Assembly: GCA_964496095.1 (NCBI GenBank)
Contig: CAZBWU010000002.1
Span: forward strand, 15,595 to 79,594
Length of the DNA: 64,000 bases
Direction: 5' to 3'
Origin: an uncultured Gammaproteobacteria bacterium
GTDB taxonomy: Bacteria; Patescibacteriota; Patescibacteriia; Magasanikbacterales; GWA2-37-8
Shown here: positions 1-56,553 of the stretch, in pieces
Layout: each line of letters starts with the position of its first letter
Position numbering within the stretch: position 1 is the stretch's first letter
Translations under genes and position numbers: made by a program
The notes under the pieces: model-generated
The model's database searches: none
The model's input: only the letters and a program-made list of their open reading frames with translations
What the model was told of the DNA's origin: nothing

Positions 1-977
1 CAAGCAAACGGTAACAGCCCGAGCCAAGCTAAAAATAACGATCGTCTATTATCGCAACCAAAGGCGCAACCAATTTCAAATAATAATAGTGGAAATACCA
101 GGGACCACAAAATCGGTAAAAACCATTTGGTAATAGTTAATAAATCTGTCTTAAAAACTTTTGCCAAAATAACATTACTTGACCAAAAATTACCATACGA
201 CAATTGACCAACTACAGATTTTAAATTTAATATTTCAGAATTAGGATTATCATAAATAATTGGTCCTACGATCTTAGCTTCCAAAAATTGTTTGCCATCT
301 AACAGTCTTTGTTCATTCGCAATATGTCGCCAACCATCTGCTCCATAAATTAAATCATGCGTAAGCGGTAAATAACTATGTAATAAAAAAGTTTGCAAAA
401 TCAAAAAGAGAATAATAATTGGGGTTTTTAATTTTGACCAAATTAACACTCCTAGTGTAAGCGTAGATAAAAAGAAAATAAAAATGTATTGTGGATTGAT
501 AACTTGCCATGGAGTTAAAATTGCATTTCCTGTACGCGAACTATAAAGCAAATAAAATCCATAACAAACTAAAATTAAAAAGGCTACGGATGCAAACCTG
601 ACTTTTAGTTTATCATTCTGAATGAAATGAAGAATCTTTCTGTCTTCAAGCTCTGTATCGGAAAGATCCCTCGTCCCCCGCTCTTCGCGAAGGGCGGGGT
701 CGCTCGGGATGACAGTTGACGCTATAATTCTTTTTGCCCACCTGGACAATAAGAAAAAAATCAATGCATTCAAAACAAAAATCCCAGCTAAAACCCAAAA
801 AGTTAAAGGCAAAAATAAAATAGCTACTCCAGCTACCCATCCCAAACTAAGAAAACTCGCAAATACTCCCAATATTCTACCATTAAAATTATTATCCAAA
901 CCAAACACTCTGACCAAGACGGCAGATACCCAATTTCCAACAATCAACAAGTAAACTGCAAAGAAAATAAACAACAT
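1..977 (-). CDS. Polytopic integral membrane protein, 3' end truncated by the window edge (possible GT-C-like glycosyltransferase; family not established); ATG at 975-977
   Basis: Manual translation of the minus strand gives an uninterrupted frame from ATG (975-977, preceded in frame by a TAG stop) to position 1. The product is strongly hydrophobic with many predicted TM segments (MLFIFFAVYLLIVGNW...). The frame runs straight through the palindromic repeat at 611-714. Not listed in the ORF track, presumably because it is partial. Confidence 0.5.
   Translation of the reverse strand, partial: MLFIFFAVYLLIVGNWVSAVLVRVFGLDNNFNGRILGVFASFLSLGWVAGVAILFLPLTFWVLAGIFVLNALIFFLLSRWAKRIIASTVIPSDPALREERGTRDLSDTELEDRKILHFIQNDKLKVRFASVAFLILVCYGFYLLYSSRTGNAILTPWQVINPQYIFIFFLSTLTLGVLIWSKLKTPIIILFLILQTFLLHSYLPLTHDLIYGADGWRHIANEQRLLDGKQFLEAKIVGPIIYDNPNSEILNLKSVVGQLSYGNFWSSNVILAKVFKTDLLTITKWFLPILWSLVFPLLLFEIGCAFGCDNRRSLFLAWLGLLPFA
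611..714. repeat. Nested-palindromic MITE/REP-like element copy E1, located inside the membrane-protein CDS and in-frame
   Basis: Termini tcattctgaatg ... cgctcgggatgaca. Internal palindromes gaaagatccctcgtc / gcgaagggcggggtcgc. Same family as the copies at 2590, 13644, 15154, 19461, 31986, 40575, 54453, 56500 and 58396. Confidence 0.7.
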
Positions 978-1121
978 AATTAAGTAAAGTATATAAAATT
1001 CAAAGGAAACAAACAAGCCCTAACCACTAGCAACAATTTATCCCCCTTCTACCAACAGGAATGCCACATTTTTTCTTGCCAAAAAAAACTGATTAGATTA
1101 AGATATACAAACACAAAAAAT

Positions 1122-2582
1122 ATGCCTCCTGACATTACTCAAATAGAAAAAGTTCAGCCTCAAAGCCTAGAAGCCGAAATGTCTCTTCTTGGCTCTGTTT
1201 TGCTTGATAAAGATGCGATGATTAAAATTGCGGACATTGTGCAGGCTGAAGATTTTTACAAAAATGCTAACGCTCAAATTTACGAAGCTATCGTTGAACT
1301 TTACCAAAAAAATGAACCGATTGACTTGCTTACTCTTAGTAATCGCCTTAATGAAAAAGGTCAATTAGAAAAAGCAGGCGGTCACAGCTATCTAGTATCG
1401 CTAACAAATACCGTACCAACCGCATCGCACGTTGTAAACTACGCCCACATTGTCCATAAAAAAGCGACTCGCCGAAGACTCTTAGGCGCCGCTCATGAAA
1501 TTTCCAAATTAGGCTACGACGAAAACGAAGAACTTGATACTCTGCTCGATCAAGCACAAAGAGAACTTTTTGGAGTTTCTCAAAACTACATGAAGCAGAC
1601 TTTTACTCCGATTCGTAGCGTACTTAATGAAGCGTTTGATAGAATTGACGAATTACACAAAAACAAAGGCCAAATGCGAGGCACACCAACTGGCTATCCT
1701 GACCTTGATAATCTTTTGGCCGGTTTGCAAAAATCAGATTTAATTATTCTAGCTGCTCGTCCGAGTGTGGGTAAAACTTCTTTTGCTCTAGATATTGTCC
1801 GCCACGTAGGAGTAAAAAATAAAACACCTGTAGGGCTCTTTTCTTTGGAAATGAGTAAAGAACAGCTAGTAGACCGCCTCCTCTGTTCTGAAGCCAACGT
1901 AGACCTCTGGAAGATGCGTACTGGACGATTGAGCGACAGACCTGAAGATGATGATTTCCCTCGTATTGGTCATGCGATGGGTGTACTTTCTGAAGCGCCA
2001 ATTTTTATTGATGATGCGCCAAACAACAATATCATGCAGATCCGTACCAAGGCTCGCCGTCTACAGATGGAACATGGCTTAGGGCTGATAGTTATCGACT
2101 ACTTGCAGCTCATGGAATCACGTGGAAGTTTGGAAAATCGTGTGCAAGAAGTTGCGGAAATCACTCGTGGTCTCAAAGGTATTGCACGTGAACTTAATAT
2201 TCCAGTAATGGCTCTATCACAGTTGTCTCGTACGGTAGAACAAAGCAAACCGGCTGTGCCAAAACTTTCTCACTTGCGTGAATCAGGGTCTATTGAACAG
2301 GACGCGGATGTGGTATTATTTATCTATCGTAAATCCGCCGACCGTAACTATCGCCCCGAAGATATTCCGCCTGATGAAAAAAATATTGCCGAAATCCATA
2401 TTGCCAAACACCGTAACGGTCCAACCGGCATGGTCCGAATGATCTTTGATGAACAGCGCGCTTCCTTCCGCAACATGACTACCCAATATACAGATCGTAT
2501 GGCTCCAGCTACCGCAGCACCTACTCTCAAACCAAAATCAGCGTTTAGTAACAACAGTGCCTTATCTGAACCACCAATGTAG
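1122..2582 (+). CDS. dnaB: Replicative DNA helicase DnaB
   Basis: DnaB N-terminal domain (LEAEMSLLGSVLLD), Walker A GARPSVGKTSFALD, the IDYLQLM motif and a typical 486-aa length. Confidence 0.9.
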   Translation: MPPDITQIEKVQPQSLEAEMSLLGSVLLDKDAMIKIADIVQAEDFYKNANAQIYEAIVELYQKNEPIDLLTLSNRLNEKGQLEKAGGHSYLVSLTNTVPTASHVVNYAHIVHKKATRRRLLGAAHEISKLGYDENEELDTLLDQAQRELFGVSQNYMKQTFTPIRSVLNEAFDRIDELHKNKGQMRGTPTGYPDLDNLLAGLQKSDLIILAARPSVGKTSFALDIVRHVGVKNKTPVGLFSLEMSKEQLVDRLLCSEANVDLWKMRTGRLSDRPEDDDFPRIGHAMGVLSEAPIFIDDAPNNNIMQIRTKARRLQMEHGLGLIVIDYLQLMESRGSLENRVQEVAEITRGLKGIARELNIPVMALSQLSRTVEQSKPAVPKLSHLRESGSIEQDADVVLFIYRKSADRNYRPEDIPPDEKNIAEIHIAKHRNGPTGMVRMIFDEQRASFRNMTTQYTDRMAPATAAPTLKPKSAFSNNSALSEPPM

Positions 2583-2589
2583 CGGCCAA

Positions 2590-2684
2590 TGTCATTCTGA
2601 GCAAAGCGAAGAATCTTTCCGTTAGCAAAACTTTTTCTCGGAAAGATCCCTCGTCGACCTAAAAAGGCCTCGCTCGGGATGACA
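2590..2684. repeat. MITE/REP-like palindromic element copy E2, starting 8 nt after the dnaB stop
   Basis: tgtcattctgagcaaagcgaagaatc ... ggaaagatccctcgtcgacc ... cgctcgggatgaca; the termini are inverted repeats. Confidence 0.75.
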
Positions 2685-2728
2685 ACGTTTTCTAAATTCA
2701 TAATTCATTATTTTTAATTCAAAAAAAT

Positions 2729-3031: not shown

Positions 3032-3633
3032 TGTCTTACTCCCCCTCCATCCAAAATTTAATTAAGGCGTTTCGAAAACTTCCAACGGTCGGCCAAAGAA
3101 CGGCCGAACGTTTTGTTTTTTATCTTCTCAAATCTGGCAAAAAAGAAGTTGCGGAAATCACTCTGGCTCTCAAAGAACTGATAGACAACGTGAAGAGCTG
3201 TGAAATCTGCTGGGATTTTGCCGATCAAAGCCCTTGCGCTATTTGCAACAATAAAACTAGAGATCAAAATACAATTTGTATTATTAGCGAACCGCAAGAT
3301 ATCCAAGTCATCGAAGGCACTGGCGCTTATACCGGGTTGTACCATGTCTTACGCGGAGTACTAGAAGCTGGCGAAGAAGATTTGGGCAGGCTCAAAATAA
3401 AAGAGCTTTTTGAAAAATTAAAAAATAATACAAATATTACTGAACTTATCCTGGCGCTCAATCCTGATTTGTCAGGCGAAACCACCATGTTATTTTTGGA
3501 AAAAAATATAAAAATCAAATTTCCCAATCTCAAAGTGACACGACTCGCCCGAGGACTACCGATGGGAAGTGACTTGCAATATGCAGATGAGATTACTTTG
3601 GGTAGTGCGATAAAAAATAGGACTATTAAATAA
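3031..3633 (+). CDS. recR: Recombination protein RecR
   Basis: HhH motif (LPTVGQRTAERFVFYLL), a C4 zinc finger (CEICWDFADQSPCAIC), a Toprim region and a 200-aa length. Confidence 0.9.
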   Translation: MSYSPSIQNLIKAFRKLPTVGQRTAERFVFYLLKSGKKEVAEITLALKELIDNVKSCEICWDFADQSPCAICNNKTRDQNTICIISEPQDIQVIEGTGAYTGLYHVLRGVLEAGEEDLGRLKIKELFEKLKNNTNITELILALNPDLSGETTMLFLEKNIKIKFPNLKVTRLARGLPMGSDLQYADEITLGSAIKNRTIK

Positions 3634-6072: not shown

Positions 6073-8868
6073 CTATTCTACCGACATCATCCCTCCAGCT
6101 CCAACCGTCACCGTACTACCCCTTCTCAGTTTACCTTGCAATAACAATTCTGCCAATTTGTTTTCTACTTTCTCCTGTAAAGCCCTACGCATAGGTCTGG
6201 CACCAAACTCGGCATCAAAACCAACATCAACCAAAAATTCTAAGGCTTCATCGGTCGCTACCAAAGTCACGCCTTTTTCTTCAATATTTTTGGCAAGCTT
6301 CAAAAACATTTGGTTGGCGATTTTTTTGATACCATCTCTGTCCAAATCATTAAATAAAACAATACCATCAAACCGGTTCAAAAATTCCGGACGATAATAT
6401 TGTTTGAGTTCACCGTGAAGAAGTTGATTGAGAACTTTTTCATGCGGAACGCCATTTCGGTTTTGCTCTTGCACAAAGGCTGTGCCGGCATTGGAAGTAG
6501 CAATGATAATGACATTGGTGAAATCATAGACATGACCCGTACTGTCGCTCAACCGGCCATCATCCATAACTTGCAAAAATAAATTCAAAATATCAGGATC
6601 AGCTTTTTCCATTTCATCCAAGAGTACGAGTGAAAATGGATTCTGACGTATAGCTTCGGTCAGCACCCCGCTCGCCTTTTCTCCTGGCATACCAATAAGC
6701 CGATAAATACTAGACTTGTCTTGGTATTCACTCATATCTAGGCGAATCATACGATCTTCTCCGCCAAAATAAATATCAGCGATAGTTTTGGCAAGTTCGG
6801 TTTTACCTACACCAGTTGGACCCAAAAATAAAAAGCTAGCAATTGGCCGTTTGCCCGAACGAATCTCGGCTCTCGCTCTACGCAAGGCATTGGCTACGGC
6901 ACTCACGCCTTCTTCTTGACCAATCACGCGCTTGCGCATTTCTTCTTCTAGGTGCATTAATTTTTCTGATTCATTACTAGATATTGCCGACAAAGGAATC
7001 TTTGTTTTTTCGGTAATAACAGTGGCCACTTCTTCTTTAGTCACTAGAGAATTAGCGCCTTTGGTATTATGAGTAAGGCTCGCAGCTTCGGTAATAATCT
7101 CCAGCGCATTGCCAGGCAAAACTGTTTCATGCAAAAATTTCATGGAAAATTCTACCGCTTTTTCTATAGCCGAGTAAGAGAAAAAAACATTTTGTTTATA
7201 CTCCAAAGAACCAACTCTTGATTCCAAAACTTGAATAGCCTGATCTTCGTTCATCTCGGCAATATTTACTTTGGTAAAGACATCTTTGAGCGAAGAATTT
7301 GAAAAACGTCCGGCATAATCTTCGGTAGTAGTGGTAGCAATAGTAAGCACCTTATCACTACGCAAAAATTCAGCGATAGTATCGGCCATATCAAGACTAC
7401 CACTCTCACCGACCGACACACCCACAAGCTCATGCAAATTATTGATAAATAAAATCACATTTCGCGCTCGAGAAATCTCTTGCATGATAGATTGCAATCT
7501 CTCCACCGCTCCCTCGGGGCTTGTGCCGGCGAGCAAAGCCGAACTGCTAAGCCTAATCAATCTTTTATCTTTAAGTTTACTTGGCACATCTCCAGAGATC
7601 ATACTTTGAGCAATTCCCTCTACAATCGTTTTTTTACCCACCCCATGCTCGCCTACCAAAATCACATTATTTTGGCCACCATCAATTACTTGGAAAATCT
7701 GATCTATCTCAGCGGTACGAGCCACACATTCTTCTAGTTGGCCAAAATGAGCCATCATCGTAATATCAGAACTAAAACTATTTAAGTACGGTGTCGCTAG
7801 AGCAGTCATCGCTTTATCCATGCCATACTTGGAATGATGACTGATAGCCTTTTGCATTTTGAGGTACTCATGATGAAAACGTTCACGCATTCTCGCCCAC
7901 TCAATCACATTAGTCAGCTGTCTTTCGGAAATATCAAAATCAAACAACATGTCTTGCAAAGCAGGAGTTTCTCGCAATACTACAATCAATAACTCAGTCA
8001 CACTCACATAATCCTGCCGAGCCAAACAGGCTTCTTCGTAGGCTTGGAAAATTATTTGGTGAATATCTTTAGATACTATTGGCGACACACCATCATAAGC
8101 TTTTTGCTTATCAACCATTGGGAAAATATGCTCTAATTCTTTTTGCAAAGAACTAGCCGGAATTCCAAGTCTAATAAAAATATTGGAAATTCTATTAAAT
8201 GACAATAGTGTATAAAATATATGTTCAGGTTTTAATTCTTTGACTCTCATTTTATCAGCCAAACCATAGCTCTTAGCTAGAGCTGTCAAAGCTTCTTCAG
8301 TAAAAGCATTGGCAATATTAAATTTTTTTCTGCCAGAAAATTTTTTCGCTTGTGCCCAAGAATCTACAACCGCATCTGCCTTTTTCTCTTTATGTTGATA
8401 ATCATGTTTGAATGTTTCCATTTTACCCACAGATTCTTTCTTACGGATAATTTGATACCAAAGATATAGGATTGATAAGACACCTAACCAAAATAAAAAT
8501 TCTGCCCAATTATTTATTCCCTTAAAAAACAAAGACCATTGTTTCGGATCTGCTAATAAAGCAAACTTATCTTGCTTGAAAATAATAAACCCAGCCCAAA
8601 TCCAAGCGTTGAGCCAAAAGACAAAAGTTGTCACCATTCTTACGCGTTTCAAAATTCTACGCGCTTTTTGCAAAGCCAGATTATATTTGGTGAGCGAAAA
8701 ATCCCAATACAACCATAACCCACGCCTAGACATACCAAAAGCCATACTTTGACACTCTTTACATTTTCGGAGTTTGACAAAGCCTGTGCCTTGGCAGGTT
8801 TCACAAAAAAGTAATTTTAATGATTCTGATTTTTTAAATTGCTGCATATATAAGTCCGTAAAAAACAA
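6073..8868 (-). CDS. ClpC/ClpB-family double-AAA+ unfoldase with an N-terminal zinc ribbon and two TM helices
   Basis: Two AAA modules (Walker A GEHGVGKKT and GPTGVGKT; D2 Walker B LLDEME; sensor SRLIGMPGE), Clp_N-like repeats and a short middle region. The N-terminus carries CETCQ...CKECQ followed by two hydrophobic helices. The D1 Walker B reads FINNLH rather than FIDE(I/L)H. Confidence 0.85.
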   Translation of the reverse strand: MFFTDLYMQQFKKSESLKLLFCETCQGTGFVKLRKCKECQSMAFGMSRRGLWLYWDFSLTKYNLALQKARRILKRVRMVTTFVFWLNAWIWAGFIIFKQDKFALLADPKQWSLFFKGINNWAEFLFWLGVLSILYLWYQIIRKKESVGKMETFKHDYQHKEKKADAVVDSWAQAKKFSGRKKFNIANAFTEEALTALAKSYGLADKMRVKELKPEHIFYTLLSFNRISNIFIRLGIPASSLQKELEHIFPMVDKQKAYDGVSPIVSKDIHQIIFQAYEEACLARQDYVSVTELLIVVLRETPALQDMLFDFDISERQLTNVIEWARMRERFHHEYLKMQKAISHHSKYGMDKAMTALATPYLNSFSSDITMMAHFGQLEECVARTAEIDQIFQVIDGGQNNVILVGEHGVGKKTIVEGIAQSMISGDVPSKLKDKRLIRLSSSALLAGTSPEGAVERLQSIMQEISRARNVILFINNLHELVGVSVGESGSLDMADTIAEFLRSDKVLTIATTTTEDYAGRFSNSSLKDVFTKVNIAEMNEDQAIQVLESRVGSLEYKQNVFFSYSAIEKAVEFSMKFLHETVLPGNALEIITEAASLTHNTKGANSLVTKEEVATVITEKTKIPLSAISSNESEKLMHLEEEMRKRVIGQEEGVSAVANALRRARAEIRSGKRPIASFLFLGPTGVGKTELAKTIADIYFGGEDRMIRLDMSEYQDKSSIYRLIGMPGEKASGVLTEAIRQNPFSLVLLDEMEKADPDILNLFLQVMDDGRLSDSTGHVYDFTNVIIIATSNAGTAFVQEQNRNGVPHEKVLNQLLHGELKQYYRPEFLNRFDGIVLFNDLDRDGIKKIANQMFLKLAKNIEEKGVTLVATDEALEFLVDVGFDAEFGARPMRRALQEKVENKLAELLLQGKLRRGSTVTVGAGGMMSVE

Positions 8869-9187
8869 CTATCGGCAGAACTAACCAGATTAAAAATAAA
8901 ATTGAACAAAAAATTAACCAAAGAAAAAGTCCGAAAATACGAACTATAATTTGCACTAATCTGACAAAAAAACTGATAACTCGTCCTTGAAAATCAAACT
9001 GGCCATACATTGGCACAAACAGATTGGCCAACCACAAACCCGGAGCCAGGCTTTCATTACCCGTTTTGAGCAGACTAAAACATTGGCGCAAAGCATAGAG
9101 AATGCCCTTGCTATACCACCAAAGAGGAAAATAAAAAATATCAATAACAGATTCCAAAAGTAAATGCTGGAAAATAAGAATACCCAT
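8834..9187 (-). CDS. Hypothetical small membrane protein
   Basis: 117 aa, hydrophobic, overlapping the start of the ClpC-like gene. No recognisable domain. Confidence 0.35.
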   Translation of the reverse strand: MGILIFQHLLLESVIDIFYFPLWWYSKGILYALRQCFSLLKTGNESLAPGLWLANLFVPMYGQFDFQGRVISFFVRLVQIIVRIFGLFLWLIFCSILFLIWLVLPIVVFYGLIYAAI

Positions 9188-9302
9188 AATAGTTTTTATT
9201 ATACCATAAAAATGAAATTGTGCCGACTTTATTTATCCAAAGCTTGACGCAGTAATCCATCTATGTTAAATAAACTTCCAGGCCTAAAGGAGGGCCACTA
9301 CT

Positions 9303-9722
9303 ATGACGACTCATGACTGGAGAAAGCGCACGTCGGAGGGCGAGAAGCAACGACTGATCGGCAGGGCGTGGGGGTCGGTGGTGGGCACCTACCTCTGGTA
9401 CGAGATCGGGGAACGCGATCAGATCGTTCGCGAGCGGCCGAACATCATCGCCAACTGCTTCACCGATCACGTGGTGGTGCCCGGTGACATCGAGTGTCAC
9501 CGCAGCAAGTACCTCGCGGGCAACCCATGGCTCCTGCGACTGCGCGGCGGCAATCTCATCTTGCACCCCTCGCTGATCTGGGGGGGAGCAAGGCGCTACT
9601 GCCCGCTCTACCAGATCGGGCACGTGGTCGAGAGCAAGTGCGTGGACGACTGCCTCAACTTCTGGCAACGGATGGACGTCAACGCTCGCGCCGGCGGGCA
9701 CAGCCACAGCGACGACATCTGA
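9303..9722 (+). CDS. Hypothetical protein encoded in a GC-rich island (foreign-looking cassette)
   Basis: 139-aa ORF preceded by a strong SD (aaaggaggg, 7 nt from the ATG). The local GC content is far above the flanking DNA, the amino-acid composition is protein-like (W, Y, C, H rich), and a terminator follows. No recognised domain. Confidence 0.45.
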   Translation: MTTHDWRKRTSEGEKQRLIGRAWGSVVGTYLWYEIGERDQIVRERPNIIANCFTDHVVVPGDIECHRSKYLAGNPWLLRLRGGNLILHPSLIWGGARRYCPLYQIGHVVESKCVDDCLNFWQRMDVNARAGGHSHSDDI

Positions 9723-9866
9723 TCATGCCCTTCGGGGCCAGATCCGCGAGCGGCTCGGGCGCACCATACGACCCGACCACCGCTCAGATCCCAGACCCGA
9801 GCCGTTCACGCAATCTAATAATTAATTTGTTAAATTGCGCGAGCTCGGATCTGTATATAATTTAAA

Positions 9867-11847: not shown

Positions 11848-12237
11848 CTATGCCAAACCCAAAGCCGGCTTAACATGTCTCATATCTTTTTCCAAAACTT
11901 CAACTCTGTCTGTCAGATTTTTTTGATCATGGGCTAACAGGGTTTGCTCTTCGTCTTTTTTGGTATATAAACCAACAATTTTATCTAAGGTGTTCATTAT
12001 TTTTGACATATCTTCTTTTGTAGCCATGTTATCCAAAACATAATCAAGCTTCTCGCTATGTTCCGCGACTGTGCGAGCCAAAAAATCAAGCTTCTGATCA
12101 TGATCTTCAAGCTTGTCATCTATTTTATCAAACTTTTTATCTATGTTATCAAACTTAAAAACAAACTCTTCAAGTTTGTTATCTATTTTATCAAATCTTT
12201 TTTCTTGTTCCATAAAATTTGTCCCAATTTTTAACAC
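11848..12237 (-). CDS. Hypothetical coiled-coil protein with FDKIDxKLE-type repeats
   Basis: 129 aa with repeated FDKIDNKLEEF / FDNIDKKFDKIDDKLEDH units. No recognisable domain. Confidence 0.4.
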   Translation of the reverse strand: MLKIGTNFMEQEKRFDKIDNKLEEFVFKFDNIDKKFDKIDDKLEDHDQKLDFLARTVAEHSEKLDYVLDNMATKEDMSKIMNTLDKIVGLYTKKDEEQTLLAHDQKNLTDRVEVLEKDMRHVKPALGLA

Positions 12238-12273: not shown

Positions 12274-13629
12274 CTATACCTCAACCTCCAACCCAAAGAT
12301 CACCGGCATTGCCTGTATCCCCAAATCTTCTGTCACTTTTTTTGCCAGAATTGCTGACACCCCCGGTTCGCCATGATTGAACAAAACTTTTTTCGGCTTG
12401 CTTTTATTACTATCTATCCATTTCATTAGTTTGGCTTGATCGCCGTGGGCTGATAAGGCGCCAATGGCTTTGATTTGGCAATGCACCGGAATATGTTCTC
12501 CCATAATTTCTACAGGTGACTGACCGTCCAGAATTCTTCTACCCAATGTATTTTCTGATTGATAACCAATAATAAGCAACGTATTTCTGGCATCCGACAA
12601 ATAACGCATCGCATGATGCATAATACGCCCCCCATTCATCATCCCCGAACCGGCAATAACTATTTTTGGTCCCGGTACATTATTTATTTTTTTTGATTCT
12701 TCTTTGGTTTCCGTCATCACCAGTCCTGGGAAATCAAACAATTCATCGCCATTTTTATATAACTTCGCTGCTTCCACATCGTAATACTTAGGATATTTAA
12801 GATACGTTCTGATAGCTTTGATAGCCAAGGGACTATCCAAAAAAATCGGCACTTTTGGCAAGATATGCTGACGATCAATGAGATTATTTAATTCATAAAT
12901 TAATTCTTGCGTTCGCTCTAGAGAAAAAGATGGGATCATTAGCGTGCCTCCGCGAGCAATCGCTTCGCGAATAAGAGTTGCCAAAATTTCTTGACGTCTA
13001 GTAATAGTTTCATGCAAACGATTACCATAAGTAGATTCACAAACAAGCACATCTATACCGGCTGGGAGGTTTTCGGTTTCTTTTAAGATCGGCACATTGA
13101 CATTGCCAACATCGCCTGAGAACACAACACGCTTTCCTTCGGCTTCAACTTCTACAAACGCAGAACCAAAAATATGACCTGCATCGTGCAGTGTAAAAGA
13201 TACTTCCGGAGTGAGAGTAAATTTTTCATTATATTCAACCGGCTTAAATCTTTCCATTACTTTTGTAATATCACCTTCGTCATACAAAGCTGGAATATTG
13301 TAATGAGTCTGGTTATATAACATGATATGCAAAGCATCTTCCATAATCAGTTCGGCCAGTTCTATCGTCGGAGGGGTGGCATAAAAACGACCTTCATAAC
13401 CGTCTTTGACTAGTAGTGGCAATCGACCCACGTGGTCAAGATGAGCGTGAGTGATAATTACCCCAGATAATTCTGACGGTTTAAAAGAAAGTTGATCTTT
13501 ATTTTTGGCTTCACTAAATTGATTGCCTTGAAACATTCCGCAGTCAACCAAAAAATGCTTAGCACCAACCGTAAACATACTGCAAGAACCTGTGACTTCG
13601 CCTGCCGCGCCGAAGAAAGACAACTTCAT
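12274..13629 (-). CDS. MBL-fold beta-CASP ribonuclease (RNase J-like)
   Basis: HAHLDHVG motif, beta-CASP and MBL motifs, and a conserved N-terminus MKLSFFGAAGEVTGSC. The track ORF extends a further 49 aa upstream through the repeat E3; ATG 13627-13629 is taken as the likely true start. Confidence 0.8.
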   Translation of the reverse strand: MKLSFFGAAGEVTGSCSMFTVGAKHFLVDCGMFQGNQFSEAKNKDQLSFKPSELSGVIITHAHLDHVGRLPLLVKDGYEGRFYATPPTIELAELIMEDALHIMLYNQTHYNIPALYDEGDITKVMERFKPVEYNEKFTLTPEVSFTLHDAGHIFGSAFVEVEAEGKRVVFSGDVGNVNVPILKETENLPAGIDVLVCESTYGNRLHETITRRQEILATLIREAIARGGTLMIPSFSLERTQELIYELNNLIDRQHILPKVPIFLDSPLAIKAIRTYLKYPKYYDVEAAKLYKNGDELFDFPGLVMTETKEESKKINNVPGPKIVIAGSGMMNGGRIMHHAMRYLSDARNTLLIIGYQSENTLGRRILDGQSPVEIMGEHIPVHCQIKAIGALSAHGDQAKLMKWIDSNKSKPKKVLFNHGEPGVSAILAKKVTEDLGIQAMPVIFGLEVEV

Positions 13630-13643
13630 ATAAATAAGGTATC

Positions 13644-13719
13644 TGTCATCCTGAATGAAATGAAGGATCTCTGTCTCAATCACCGCCGGACAGAGATTCT
13701 TCGCAAGCTCAGAATGACA
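13644..13719. repeat. MITE/REP-like palindromic element copy E3, 15 nt upstream of the RNase J-like start
   Basis: tgtcatcctgaatgaaatgaaggatctctgtc ... ccggacagagattcttcgcaagctcagaatgaca. An open reading frame is retained through it. Confidence 0.75.
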
Positions 13720-15153: not shown

Positions 15154-15299
15154 TGTCATCCCGAGCGAAGCCGCTCCTGCGGCTGACGAGGGATCTAAAC
15201 ATTAATTTTAATTTAATGAATAGATTCCTCACACCTAAAGGGGGTTCGGAATGACAACGACCAACCGGACAGAGATTCTTCACTCCGTTCAGAATGACA
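15154..15299. repeat. Composite MITE/REP-like elements E4 (full unit plus half unit) between the stop of the previous gene and murJ
   Basis: tgtcatcccgagcgaagccgctcctgcggctgacgagggatct ... ggttcggaatgaca, followed by accaaccggacagagattcttcactccgttcagaatgaca. Confidence 0.75.
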
Positions 15300-19460: not shown

Positions 19461-19538
19461 TGTCATTCTGAGCAAAGCGAATAATCCCTGTCCAACGAAA
19501 CAACCGGACAGAGATCCTTCACTGCGTTCAGGATGACA
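19461..19538. repeat. MITE/REP-like palindromic element copy E5, ending 5 nt before an ATG
   Basis: tgtcattctgagcaaagcgaataatccctgtcc ... ggacagagatccttcactgcgttcaggatgaca. The terminal AGGA may serve as an SD surrogate. Confidence 0.75.
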
Positions 19539-31985: not shown

Positions 31986-32071
31986 TGTCATCCCGAGCGA
32001 AGCCGCTTTTGCGGCTGACGAGGGATCTATACTTTAATGAATAGATTCCTCACACAAGGTTCGGAATGACA
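31986..32071. repeat. MITE/REP-like palindromic element copy E6, between the rplI stop and the pyrG start
   Basis: tgtcatcccgagcgaagccgcttttgcggctgacgagggatct ... ggttcggaatgaca. Confidence 0.75.
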
Positions 32072-40574: not shown

Positions 40575-40750
40575 TGTCATTCTGAATCCCCTCAAGGGGA
40601 TAAACCCCATAAAGAATCCCTGTCTAAACAATGTCATTCCCGCAAAAAGCGGGAATCCAGACAATTCAATTGAACGCTGGATCCCCGATCAAGTCGGGGA
40701 TGACAACGAACAAACCGGACAGAGATCCTTCGCTGTCACTCAGGATGACA
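40575..40750. repeat. Tandem cluster of three or more MITE/REP-like palindromic units (E7) between the dnaJ stop and the ECF sigma start
   Basis: tgtcattctgaatcccctcaaggggataaacccc..., then tgtcattcccgcaaaaagcgggaatccagacaa, then ...gatccccgatcaagtcggggatgacaacgaacaaaccggacagagatccttcgctgtcactcaggatgaca. Confidence 0.7.
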
Positions 40751-40772
40751 GTTGCGCAACAATTAAAACAAA

Positions 40773-53105: not shown

Positions 53106-54231
53106 GTATTTTATTCACTAACCAGTCTTTCAATCGACGATGCCAGCCAATTTTATTATTTAGACCCAACTCTGACAGAGGCACTGCTTCTTTTTTTAAT
53201 TCATCAAAAATTTTATTAAGGTCTTCTACCATTTTTTTATCTGAAAAAACTACGCCCGCTTCATGATTAATATAAAAACTACGCGGAGTGAGATTGGCGC
53301 TACCAACCATACCAAGCTTGCCATCCACTGTCACCGCCTTACCATGATTCATTTTTCTCAAAAAATAAAAAACCGCTCCCGCTTTAGCGGAAATACTAAA
53401 AAACATAGAAGCCATATAACGCATCAGGCGCTCATCTGTTCGCCATGGCGTGATAATATTTATTTTTACTCCTCGGGCATGTGCCTTGGCTATCAAATCC
53501 AAAAAACTCTTATCAGGCACATAGTAGGGTGTCAATAAATTAAAGCTTTCTTTAGCAGTACTAAGCGCATCTTTATAAAATTTCTTAAATGGCGACTTGC
53601 GAGTTGACCCTAAAGGTGAATGCAAAATTAGTTTTATTTTCTCCTTAAAGCTACTAATTTTAGCAACCAACTTTGGCCTTAGTAAATCTTGCACATCTCT
53701 TTTATCGCCTCCAGCTCGCACATAAGCTCTGCCAAAGGCAAACAAAATAGGCACCACTGTTTTGCCAGTCAAACGTAAATGTAAATCATGCCAACTGGCT
53801 GAGTCTTGGGCCACATTGACACCACCGATAAACAGTATATCTTTATCAATAATTAAAACTTTGCGATGAGTACGATGCCAAACTCGACGCCACCAACCAT
53901 ATATAGAAAAACCCGGACGAAGATGATTAAAAATCAAAAGCTTAATTCCCGCATTTCGCATTTGAGCAATAGCTTCTTTGGATAAATCATAACTACCAAA
54001 GCCATCCACAATAATTTTAACATCTAATCCTGTCTGCGCTTTGGCGCACAACAAATCTATAAAAGGCTTACCGGCCTCGTCATCTACAAACATAAAAATC
54101 TCCCAATAGATTGAGCTTTTGGCCTCCAAAATAGCCTGTCGCATTCCTGCCCAAGCCAAAACAGTGCTATTGTAAAATTTATAGCTAAAAGACATATACT
54201 TAAATATACTCTGCCCAAGAAGAAATATCAA
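53092..54231 (-). CDS. Phospholipase D family protein (cardiolipin synthase-like, two HKD motifs)
   Basis: HRKVLIIDKDILFIGGVN and HGKAVTVDGKLGMVGSANLTPRS; 379 aa. Confidence 0.75.
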   Translation of the reverse strand: MIFLLGQSIFKYMSFSYKFYNSTVLAWAGMRQAILEAKSSIYWEIFMFVDDEAGKPFIDLLCAKAQTGLDVKIIVDGFGSYDLSKEAIAQMRNAGIKLLIFNHLRPGFSIYGWWRRVWHRTHRKVLIIDKDILFIGGVNVAQDSASWHDLHLRLTGKTVVPILFAFGRAYVRAGGDKRDVQDLLRPKLVAKISSFKEKIKLILHSPLGSTRKSPFKKFYKDALSTAKESFNLLTPYYVPDKSFLDLIAKAHARGVKINIITPWRTDERLMRYMASMFFSISAKAGAVFYFLRKMNHGKAVTVDGKLGMVGSANLTPRSFYINHEAGVVFSDKKMVEDLNKIFDELKKEAVPLSELGLNNKIGWHRRLKDWLVNKIRDYV

Positions 54232-55271
54232 CCCAAATTATGCAGAAAATCCATCACTATTTTTTCCACATCATCGGCGGTTTTTGCGCCTTCCATCAGC
54301 CTAACCCGAAGTTCTTTAGCTCCGTCAAATCCATTGACATAAGCCTTATAATGTTTTTTCATGATATCAAAATTTTTATAGTCTCCCAGGACTTTTTCAA
54401 ACAAATGTGTATGCTCTACCATCACCATAAGTTTCTCCTCAACACTCGGCGTTGTCATCCTGAACGGAGTGAAGGATCCCTTAAACTCAGACGATAGGGA
54501 TTCTTCATTTCTCTCAGAATGACAACCGGAAAAAAGCCAGGGATTACCGAAAATCCCTCGACCAATCATCACGCCGTCTGCGCCGGTTTGTTTTACTCTT
54601 TCTTCAGCCTCGGATAAATTTTTGACATCACCATTCCCTAAAATCAAAGTCCTACTTTCTGAACTATCATATTTATTTCTAATCTCAACAGCATCTTTGA
54701 CAGTTTCCCAATTGGCAGGAACTTTGGACATCTCTTTGCGCGTACGAGCGTGCACAGTAATTGCAGCTGGTTCAGTTTCCAACAAGTACGGCAACCACTC
54801 AGACAAAGTATTTTTGTTATAACCGATTCTAGTTTTGACTGACACTGGCAAATTACCCGCTCCACGTTTAGTTTCTTTGATAATCTCTTGAGCTAACAAT
54901 GGGTGCTTTATCAGGCACGCTCCCCCGCCCTGTTTTTCTACATTTCTGTCAGGACAGCCCATATTAATATCAATTCCATCAAAACCAAGTTCTTGAATGA
55001 GCAATGCTGTTTTATAAAAATTCTCAGGATTGGAACCAAAAATCTGCGCCACAATTGGACGCTCTGCTTCGCTATACATAAAATCTATCAGAAGTTTGTC
55101 TCGGCCAGCTGAGACCAACCCATCACAAGCTACAAATTCGGTCCACATGACGTCTGGTTTACCGTATTTGGCAATTACACGTCGAAAAGCAGCGTCCGTG
55201 ACATTAGCCATCGGCGCCAAAACAAAAATTGGCTTTTTTAGTTTTTGCCAAAAGCCTGTGTGCATATGCAT
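54228..55271 (-). CDS. dus: tRNA-dihydrouridine synthase (Dus family) carrying an in-frame 24-aa insertion derived from a palindromic repeat
   Basis: TIM-barrel Dus motifs (LAPMANVTD, catalytic Cys region NMGCP, GADGVMIGRGIFGNPWLF). The segment SGCHSERNEESLSSEFKGSFTPFRMTTP is encoded by repeat E8 (54453-54524). Confidence 0.85.
   Translation of the reverse strand: MHMHTGFWQKLKKPIFVLAPMANVTDAAFRRVIAKYGKPDVMWTEFVACDGLVSAGRDKLLIDFMYSEAERPIVAQIFGSNPENFYKTALLIQELGFDGIDINMGCPDRNVEKQGGGACLIKHPLLAQEIIKETKRGAGNLPVSVKTRIGYNKNTLSEWLPYLLETEPAAITVHARTRKEMSKVPANWETVKDAVEIRNKYDSSESRTLILGNGDVKNLSEAEERVKQTGADGVMIGRGIFGNPWLFSGCHSERNEESLSSEFKGSFTPFRMTTPSVEEKLMVMVEHTHLFEKVLGDYKNFDIMKKHYKAYVNGFDGAKELRVRLMEGAKTADDVEKIVMDFLHNLG
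54453..54524. repeat. MITE/REP-like palindromic element copy E8, lying within the dus coding sequence (72 bp, in-frame)
   Basis: tgtcatcctgaacggagtgaaggatccc ... gggattcttcatttctctcagaatgaca. Confidence 0.8.
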
Positions 55272-56351: not shown

Positions 56352-56423
56352 TAGCCCCAACGGGAATCGCACCCGTCTTTCGACCTTGAGAAGGTCACGT
56401 CCTAACTGATAGACGATGGGGCC
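56352..56423 (-). tRNA. tRNA-Glu (anticodon CUC)
   Basis: Manual cloverleaf: acceptor GGCCCCA/TGGGGCT (G1-U71 wobble), U8, D-stem GTCT/GGAC, anticodon stem TGACC/GGTCG, loop TTCTCAA (anticodon CTC, A37), T-stem ACGGG/CCCGT, discriminator A. The 5' sequence GGCCCCATCGTCTA is typical of tRNA-Glu. Confidence 0.75.
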
Positions 56424-56499: not shown

Positions 56500-56553
56500 A
56501 GTGTAAGGGATTCCTCCACTCAGTCGCAAAAGCTCCTTCGGTCGGAATGACAA
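56500..56553. repeat. Partial (right-half) MITE/REP-like element E9, between the typA stop and tRNA-Glu
   Basis: ggattcctccactcagtcgcaaaagctccttcggtcggaatgaca. Confidence 0.5.

Follow-up and report, generated by a model that had tools for sequence, protein, structure and literature searches.

A Two-Module Hairpin Repeat Related to SRM/NTS Repeats in Frame Within a Loop of a Membrane-Protein Gene From a Magasanikbacteria-Like Genome

Introduction

Palindromic repeats that have entered genes in frame are known from Rickettsia, in which Rickettsia palindromic elements (RPE) of about 100–150 bp, forming defined families with conserved peptides, are inserted in frame and translated as extra segments at positions compatible with the protein fold, nearly half of the copies of some families being located in open reading frames (ORFs) (Ogata et al., 2000, 2002, reviewed in PMC10969869). 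Here we examine E1, a 104-nt repeat within a gene for a polytopic membrane protein at the edge of a stretch of 64,000 nt (hereafter the window; contig CAZBWU010000002.1, positions 15,595–79,594 of the forward strand, assembly GCA_964496095.1), from a Magasanikbacteria-like genome of the candidate phyla radiation (CPR).

A second group of repeats bears on E1. Small single-domain GIY-YIG proteins (Ssn, cd10448) were shown to be site-specific nucleases of single-stranded DNA (ssDNA) that act on hairpin repeats bearing a 5' tag of fixed orientation, namely the NTS of Neisseria (CGTCATTCCCGCGMAVGCGGGAATCYRG, with dRS3 as the core) and, more generally, Ssn-related motifs (SRMs) (Chenal et al., 2025, PMC11893778). 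SRM repeats often flank the ssn gene, as the ends of insertion sequences (IS) surround a transposase gene (PMC11893778). NTS repeats cluster around membrane-protein genes and limit recombination in Neisseria but are seldom intragenic (2% in N. meningitidis), while SRMs are abundant in Rickettsia and Wolbachia, with Rickettsia listed among the genomes that carry more than 300 of them; CPR bacteria are unmentioned in the main text of that paper (PMC11893778).

We consider it probable (roughly 0.8) that E1 is an SRM-like two-module repeat that survived in frame in a tolerant loop, where it would encode a disordered and neutral passenger. The phenomenon is already known from Rickettsia and is not a new system; E1 adds a new host lineage and a GA-bulged variant of the hairpin, and it connects in-frame repeat insertion with the recently characterized Ssn/SRM hairpins.

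Results and Discussion

E1 Within a Continuous Membrane-Protein Frame

The gene and the parts of E1 are as follows.

1..977, minus strand: 5' part (codons 1–325 of 712) of the polytopic membrane-protein gene, from translation and from the full ORF in contig L083
611..714, no strand assigned: E1, two-module mosaic hairpin repeat, in frame, coding for residues 89–122 (VIPSDPALREERGTRDLSDTELEDRKILHFIQND)
665..714, minus strand: module A, hairpin of the long "CCC" type, gene-sense strand, TGTCATCCCGAGCG-[ACCCCGC..GCGGGGGA]-CGAGGGATC
637..664, no strand assigned: spacer between the modules, from comparison with the 2590..2684 element and from folding
611..636, plus strand: module B, hairpin of the short "TCT" type, template strand (TATCATTCTGAATGAAATGAAGAATC; family D6)

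An earlier note on this DNA had described an uninterrupted minus-strand frame from the ATG at 975–977 to base 1, and translation bears this out, with 325 codons and no stop; the hydrophilic text quoted in that note (...IIASTVIPSDPALREERGTRDLSDTELEDRKILHFIQND...) is found in the translated product. Its further claim of a multi-helix product agrees with a hydropathy scan and an AlphaFold2 model, both of which show the insert flanked by hydrophobic helices. The left extension that it proposed was obtained by an exact-sequence lookup of the window DnaB, which led to Logan contig L083 (SRR10036081). This contig is 100% identical to window positions 1–2645 and reaches further left, and in it the gene is a single complete ORF of 712 amino acids that runs through E1 and retains every conserved motif downstream of it. 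The identity of an independent assembly and the complete ORF argue against a local frame error, and no frameshift or stop splits the gene.

Full-length orthologs have about 690–740 amino acids and share motifs that include PWQ and HSYLPLTHxLIYGADGWRH. Neither the window fragment nor three full-length orthologs matched a Pfam family, and a Foldseek comparison of the AlphaFold2 model with the PDB gave no match at E ≤ 0.001.

E1 spans position 3 of codon 88 to position 1 of codon 123. Module A has the stem ATCCC/GGGAT with an oriented TGTCAT tag on its 5' side, together with tandem GA/GA and an inner hairpin that is variable, and modules of its type recur at 2646–2681, 15157–15194, and 31989–32026. 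The ends of the spacer, TTTCYG...CGGAAA, can pair with each other and are common to E1 and the 2590–2684 element. When E1 was used as a BLASTN query, the single match was a near-identical 28-nt segment (96%) corresponding to module B in a Phocaeicola massiliensis plasmid (OY725989.1, 70417–70444), and phages gave none; the same hairpin thus occurs in Bacteroidota.

An Insertion in a Variable Inter-Helix Loop

Orthologs were collected as eight relatives from a protein search and 80 orthologous loci from a scan of one genome per species; the informative names among these loci are Ca. Magasanikbacteria or other Patescibacteria, while many records are generically labeled. In an N-terminal alignment, about 45 orthologs have 19–28 amino acids between the third and fourth hydrophobic helices, compared with 42 in the window, and the extra window residues 89–122, which these orthologs lack, coincide with E1. 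The suggestion of the earlier note that this hydrophilic segment is an inserted loop is thus borne out, since the segment is absent from the aligned orthologs and is placed between transmembrane (TM) helices, and the comparison indicates that it is not ancestral. In the AlphaFold2 model of the fragment (mean predicted local distance difference test, pLDDT, 68.7), helices are predicted at residues 60–88 and 108–146, and residues 89–118 are the sole long stretch in the region with pLDDT below 50, in agreement with the position of the insert.

RWAKR and KLKVR flank the insert, and KLK forms the short loop between TM5 and TM6. Under the positive-inside rule, these residues suggest that the E1 loop between TM3 and TM4 probably faces the cytoplasm and that the conserved YGADGWRH loop faces outward.

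The ratio of nonsynonymous to synonymous substitution rates (dN/dS), calculated against the sister genome L003 (72% identity), is 0.23 on the N-terminal side of the insert and 0.06 on the C-terminal side, compared with about 0.9 across the insert itself, which indicates that both halves are kept as coding sequence in one frame while the insert evolves freely. At the same site L003 has a different and shorter element, a single decayed module with the inner hairpin CCTGCCTGCCGGACAGGCAGG, so the peptide is not conserved, and the right boundary (..TCAGAATGAYAAAC; QNDK) is common to both genomes. A decayed module is also present in L006 (57% identity), at the same codon offset after RWAK (RWAK plus five residues at the left boundary), whereas the site is empty in L004, L005, L007, and L009 (53–58% identity), which have short, module-free loops. 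In a rough and weak neighbor-joining (NJ) tree, the window and L003 lie beside the empty L004, and L006 is grouped with the empty L007 and L009. The history of the site may be either one old insertion followed by losses or repeated insertion at the same spot.

The same membrane-protein family carries module-derived in-frame inserts in other loops, at 6362–6447 of L041, 4881–4907 of L024, and 7152–7200 of L021, for example LSSRPQEGSLAHGTTDRDSSSARASLGMT after the YGADGWRH loop, and L041 and L024 have further repeat-like inserts by the C-terminal helices.

The Repeat Family in the Window and Beyond

Modules were defined as CATYCYGA-N(3-45)-GARGRAT, mostly with TG in front and C behind. In the 64 kb, 16 modules have stems that pair correctly, an abundance far above chance; they are distributed over nine loci, where they stand alone, in inverted pairs or in mosaics of three or four. 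Besides E1, the copies are the following.

2590..2684, no strand assigned: intergenic two-module copy in the dnaB/ybaB gap, the closest paralog of E1, with common spacer ends
13644..13719, no strand assigned: "E3", two-module copy, not intragenic, located 15 nt upstream of position 13629, at which a beta-CASP/RNase J-like gene really begins
15154..15299, no strand assigned: intergenic three-module copy upstream of murJ
19493..19538, minus strand: intergenic single-module copy
31986..32071, no strand assigned: intergenic two-module copy with the genes for CTP synthase and ribosomal protein L9 on either side
40575..40752, no strand assigned: intergenic four-module mosaic, with modules matching the published SRM pattern at 40632–40660 (plus strand, TGTCATTCCCGCAAAAAGCGGGAATCCAG) and 40677–40705 (minus strand) and two GA-type modules
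54453..54524, no strand assigned: two-module element inside the tRNA-dihydrouridine synthase gene (dus, 54228..55271, minus strand), encoding CHSERNEESLSSEFKGSFTPFRMT
56507..56552, minus strand: intergenic single module with a long interior, between a tRNA gene and typA/bipA

Among modules from the window and from loci of related metagenome-assembled genomes (MAGs), all but one (68 of 69) have Watson-Crick pairs at both variable stem positions, and the four stem variants are used roughly equally, which is strong covariation for a 5-bp stem with tandem GA/GA. GCGAAGC, a DNA mini-hairpin of unusual stability, often forms the interior. A generic scan for GTCAT plus a perfect 6-bp stem performed no better than on shuffled sequences, because the stems of the GA-type modules have just 5 bp. 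The 26-nt core TGTCATYCYGAGCGAAGCGARGRATC was found in at least 120 stretches from metagenomes and in 66 viral contigs, over a GC range of 31–71%, and correct pairing at both variable stem positions is seen in 207 of the 213 metagenome and viral copies; the module is thus distributed over many environments and organisms.

In related MAGs, in-frame modules occur in two other loops of the same membrane-protein family (L041/L024 and L021), in a PPDK_N domain protein (L046) and in the tails of coupling proteins of type IV secretion systems (T4SS; L052 and L033). Nothing relevant emerged from full-text literature searches, whether for peptides derived from the repeat (FAQNDK and HSERSEES among them) or for MITE and REP repeats in Patescibacteria.

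TrwB/TraG-like T4SS coupling-protein genes lie near the membrane-protein gene in several genomes (558–2654 of L083; also L033, L041, and L052), and several of them have modules in frame in the part that encodes the N- or C-terminal tail.

Comparison With SRM/NTS Repeats and GIY-YIG Genes

The published SRM pattern, HGTCWYN(0-2)YYVSBRHN(0-5)WNVSBRGN(0-2)RNCYNB, matches the window twice, at the two positions listed above in the four-module mosaic, where 0.07 matches are expected by chance. Both are nearly the NTS consensus, and in this window near-canonical NTS sequences (TGTCATTCCCGC-AAAAA-GCGGGAATCCAG) stand in the same mosaics as GA-type modules. This co-occurrence of canonical SRM and GA-type modules is also found at the Magasanikbacteria MAG loci L051 and L052. 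In its arrangement the 40575–40752 mosaic resembles a Neisseria NIME, here in a CPR genome, and it ties the E1 family to the SRM/NTS repeats.

Like SRM, NTS, and dRS3, the E1 family consists of inverted-repeat hairpins of 20–50 nt that carry (T/C)GTCAT as the 5' tag and ATC on the 3' side. The SRM tags (5' HGTCWY, 3' RNCYNB) are present in module A as TGTCAT...GGGATCTTT, TGTCAT occurs in most window copies, and the stem core ATTCC/GGAAT resembles that of dRS3 (ATTCCC-N8-GGGAAT). The family also shares with SRM/NTS its multiple copies, its mostly intergenic position, and its inverted pairs and mosaics, and its location in other contigs beside or flanking small single-domain GIY-YIG genes may be a further parallel. 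It differs in its CPR host, in a window without an ssn gene and in the conserved tandem GA/GA internal loop, often around GCGAAGC. Judged by its sequence, E1 is therefore an SRM-like variant rather than a canonical SRM.

A survey of all fetched loci, roughly 2.1 Mb, found five GIY-YIG ORFs (PF01541, about 100 amino acids), all of which lie 26–190 nt from a GA-type module, and one of which is in a Patescibacteria MAG. In a viral contig, a 114-amino-acid ORF between modules encodes a GIY-YIG domain protein. GIY-YIG ORFs of about 100 amino acids flanked by GA-type modules are located at 170–560 of L131, 10730–11230 of L261, and 10743–10937 of L075, and the gene in L131 is flanked by direct 33-nt repeats, TGTCATTCTGAGCG[A/C]AGCGAAGAATCCACTTGG. 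By analogy, these arrangements match the IS-like architecture of SRM-ssn-SRM.

Comparison With Other Small Repeats

E1 resembles the RPE in being palindromic, in its family's in-frame copies in unrelated housekeeping genes, in the use of loop and linker sites and in a reduced genome with little intergenic space. As with RPE, copies lie in frame in functional ORFs and are missing in orthologs (the membrane protein, Dus, and genes of related MAGs), and they occupy sites compatible with the fold, namely a disordered inter-helix loop and a Dus interdomain junction. Unlike RPE, however, the E1 family is modular and variable in length and frame, has no conserved peptide, as the encoded peptides vary between element copies and frames, and mostly avoids genes.

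The family is small and non-autonomous like MITE, REP, BIME, and REPIN repeats, and its terminal modules TGTCATYCYGA...TCRGRATGACA provide the terminal inverted repeats of a MITE (TGTCATYCYGA / TCRGRATGACA). Its inverted hairpin doublets with a spacer recall REPINs, and its mosaic clusters recall BIMEs. The tag, however, is TGTCAT rather than the GTAG or CGTC of REP/REPIN, and the associated gene encodes a GIY-YIG protein rather than a Y1 transposase; in contrast to RAYT and IS200/IS605 systems, no transposase or RAYT was found nearby, and the nuclease is of the GIY-YIG and not of the HUH or DDE type.

Proposed Origin of E1 and Alternatives

Taken together, we propose that E1 is a non-autonomous repeat, a mosaic in which two hairpin modules stand in inverted orientation. 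Each comprises a covarying 5-bp stem ATYCY/RGRAT with a TGTCAT tag on its 5' side, a variable interior, and tandem GA/GA. Such modules are probably a "GA-type" variant of the SRM/NTS/dRS3 hairpins, which accumulate as NIME- or BIME-like mosaics. In this model, one copy entered the variable, hydrophilic TM3–TM4 linker of a 712-amino-acid membrane protein in a Magasanikbacteria-like CPR genome, and it probably survived because the net insertion was frame-neutral, the frame used was stop-free and the most hydrophilic one, and the loop tolerates changes in length. The gene remains one ORF, and translation of the insert is predicted to yield some 35 disordered residues, a passenger loop without a function of its own. 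Mobilization was most likely by an Ssn-like GIY-YIG nuclease via ssDNA cleavage, and the peptide is most likely a neutral, disordered passenger in the cytoplasm.

Several observations weigh against this proposal. The nearest orthologs with an empty site are just 53–58% identical in protein, so there is no clean empty allele for comparison, and no direct repeat that could be a target-site duplication is present in the flanks of six two- or three-module copies. E1 modules, and GA-type modules generally, fail the published SRM pattern, as the GA/GA internal loop breaks the match, and the tag of module B is one base off, with TATCAT in place of TGTCAT. Taken alone, E1 has just a modest folding advantage over shuffled sequence (z = −1.7 to −1.9). 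The 64 kb window contains no GIY-YIG or ssn gene, and searches of NCBIfam and PDB sequences with the GIY-YIG neighbors, which are putative members of the Ssn clade (cd10448), gave no informative match. Translation of the E1 peptide is itself a prediction.

The hydrophilic segment might alternatively be ancestral: a cytoplasmic loop, conserved in the protein, would then just look like the repeat or would itself have given rise to the repeat copies. Module-like sequence at this loop in three lineages (the window, L003, and L006), with the same left boundary in L006, would fit such an origin, but the loops of about 45 orthologs, including L004, L005, L007, and L009, are short and module-free, the homology to intergenic copies such as 2590–2684 is at the nucleotide level, and the dN/dS of about 0.9 in the insert differs from 0.06–0.23 in the flanks; we thus rejected an ancestral loop, which is largely refuted and very improbable. 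It is somewhat less improbable, though still hard to sustain, that the insertion split or inactivated the gene, leaving two products (an N-terminal peptide with three TM helices and the core) or a young pseudogene, with the open frame being incidental. The core can evidently stand alone, as L041, L047, L063, L066, and L074 lack the three N-terminal helices, and about one in ten random insertions would stay open by chance. However, the full 712-amino-acid ORF with all downstream conserved motifs, its identical sequence in an independent assembly, and purifying selection on both sides in the same frame, measured against a sister genome in which the site is also occupied, are better explained by a single intact gene.

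Of the rivals, the one we regard as least unlikely, although unlikely nonetheless, is co-option, in which the same site would be repeatedly targeted and the element would have acquired a role at the RNA or DNA level or serve as a functional cytoplasmic linker peptide. The element could, for example, form a hairpin in the mRNA and thereby alter translation or stability, or it could be cut by Ssn and so restrict recombination at this locus, the role that NTS has in Neisseria. The strong covariation of the stem could reflect such a role, but it is family-wide and not particular to the E1 copy, of which the module B tag is mutated and the fold z-score unremarkable, and the sister lineage has remodeled and shortened the element. 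Repeated targeting might be read from the occupation of the same codon position in the window/L003 and in L006, which are not sisters in the NJ tree, and from module-derived inserts in at least three different loops of this membrane-protein family across lineages, and a parallel exists in the clustering of NTS at membrane-protein genes of Neisseria (PMC11893778); the tree, however, is weak, and one old insertion followed by losses would also account for the codon position.

Other candidates were tried and rejected. A misassembly conflicts with flanks that are collinear with the orthologs and with the identical independent assembly, and E1 is too small for an intein or intron and lacks their catalytic features. 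A hammerhead-like ribozyme was rejected as well, since its core misfits by eye and Rfam is blank over E1 and the 2590–2684 element: in a gathering search of the whole window with Rfam 15 only tRNA reached the gathering score, and an E-value search of 550–2750 gave nothing over either element at E up to 5.

No Support for a Frame-Preserving Bias

From the membrane protein, the dus case and an open frame through E3, the earlier note had suggested that the family is biased toward frame-preserving insertion. The dus copy is a genuine in-frame insertion, at the junction of the TIM barrel and helical domain of Dus. The open frame through E3 (13644–13719), by contrast, proved to be a 5' extension from a TTG, ahead of the ATG at which the beta-CASP nuclease gene really starts (MKLSFFGAAGE...), and the bias itself is not supported. 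Elements are markedly underrepresented in genes, with two of nine loci intragenic (compared with 2% for NTS in N. meningitidis) in a window that is about 91% coding (binomial P = 1.5e-6). A survey of element length modulo 3, which that note had called for, shows no excess of multiples of three (10 of 24 multi-module elements), and the reading frames of the elements are open as often as random windows of the same lengths (17/54, 31%, vs. 31.5%).

No other available frame is as hydrophilic as those used in the membrane-protein gene and in dus (grand average of hydropathy −0.96 and −1.02, respectively), and the surviving sites are a variable inter-helix linker and the Dus domain junction. We read the in-frame copies as those that selection has spared in loops tolerant of extra sequence, and not as a sign of a frame-aware mechanism. 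With about 8 of 42 element loci within verified genes, the distribution is the one expected from random insertion and purifying selection in a gene-dense genome, and by analogy the pattern of intragenic copies mirrors that of the RPE (PMC10969869).

Implications and Other Observations

A bolder and rather doubtful idea is that GA-type SRM hairpins form an undescribed Ssn-associated subclass that acts as a source of loops and linkers at preferred sites in the proteins of CPR genomes (about 91% coding); if so, they would supply new segments especially to membrane and T4SS proteins. The published SRM pattern misses a large GA-bulged subclass, and this matters for surveys of Ssn specificity. For annotation, peptides such as VIPSE..., CHSERSEES..., and ...FAQNDK in CPR proteins would be passenger loops instead of conserved motifs, and ORFs across intergenic copies would be spurious. 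An example is the 117-amino-acid ORF at 2348–2701 (minus strand), which runs through the 2590–2684 element, overlaps the 3' end of dnaB, and is almost certainly spurious.

Next to the membrane-protein gene, dnaB is separated by a spacer of 144 nt only (978–1121) in the window, and in the sister genome L001 an additional, Pfam-negative gene of 378 amino acids (8699–9835) lies between the two. Positions 2146–2178 of dnaB and 3143–3175 of recR, 1 kb apart, share a 33-nt stretch with 30/33 identity in the same codon phase (EVAEIT..LK), for which we estimate a chance expectation of about 1e-5 for the window; the stretch has a single occurrence in L001, and it is possibly a short gene-conversion patch. 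The tRNA gene at 56352–56423 (minus strand) is 84 nt from the single module at 56507–56552. At 12043–12205, a tandem array with a 21-nt period lies in a 129-amino-acid ORF (11848..12237, minus strand), which would encode a heptad-like repeat protein.

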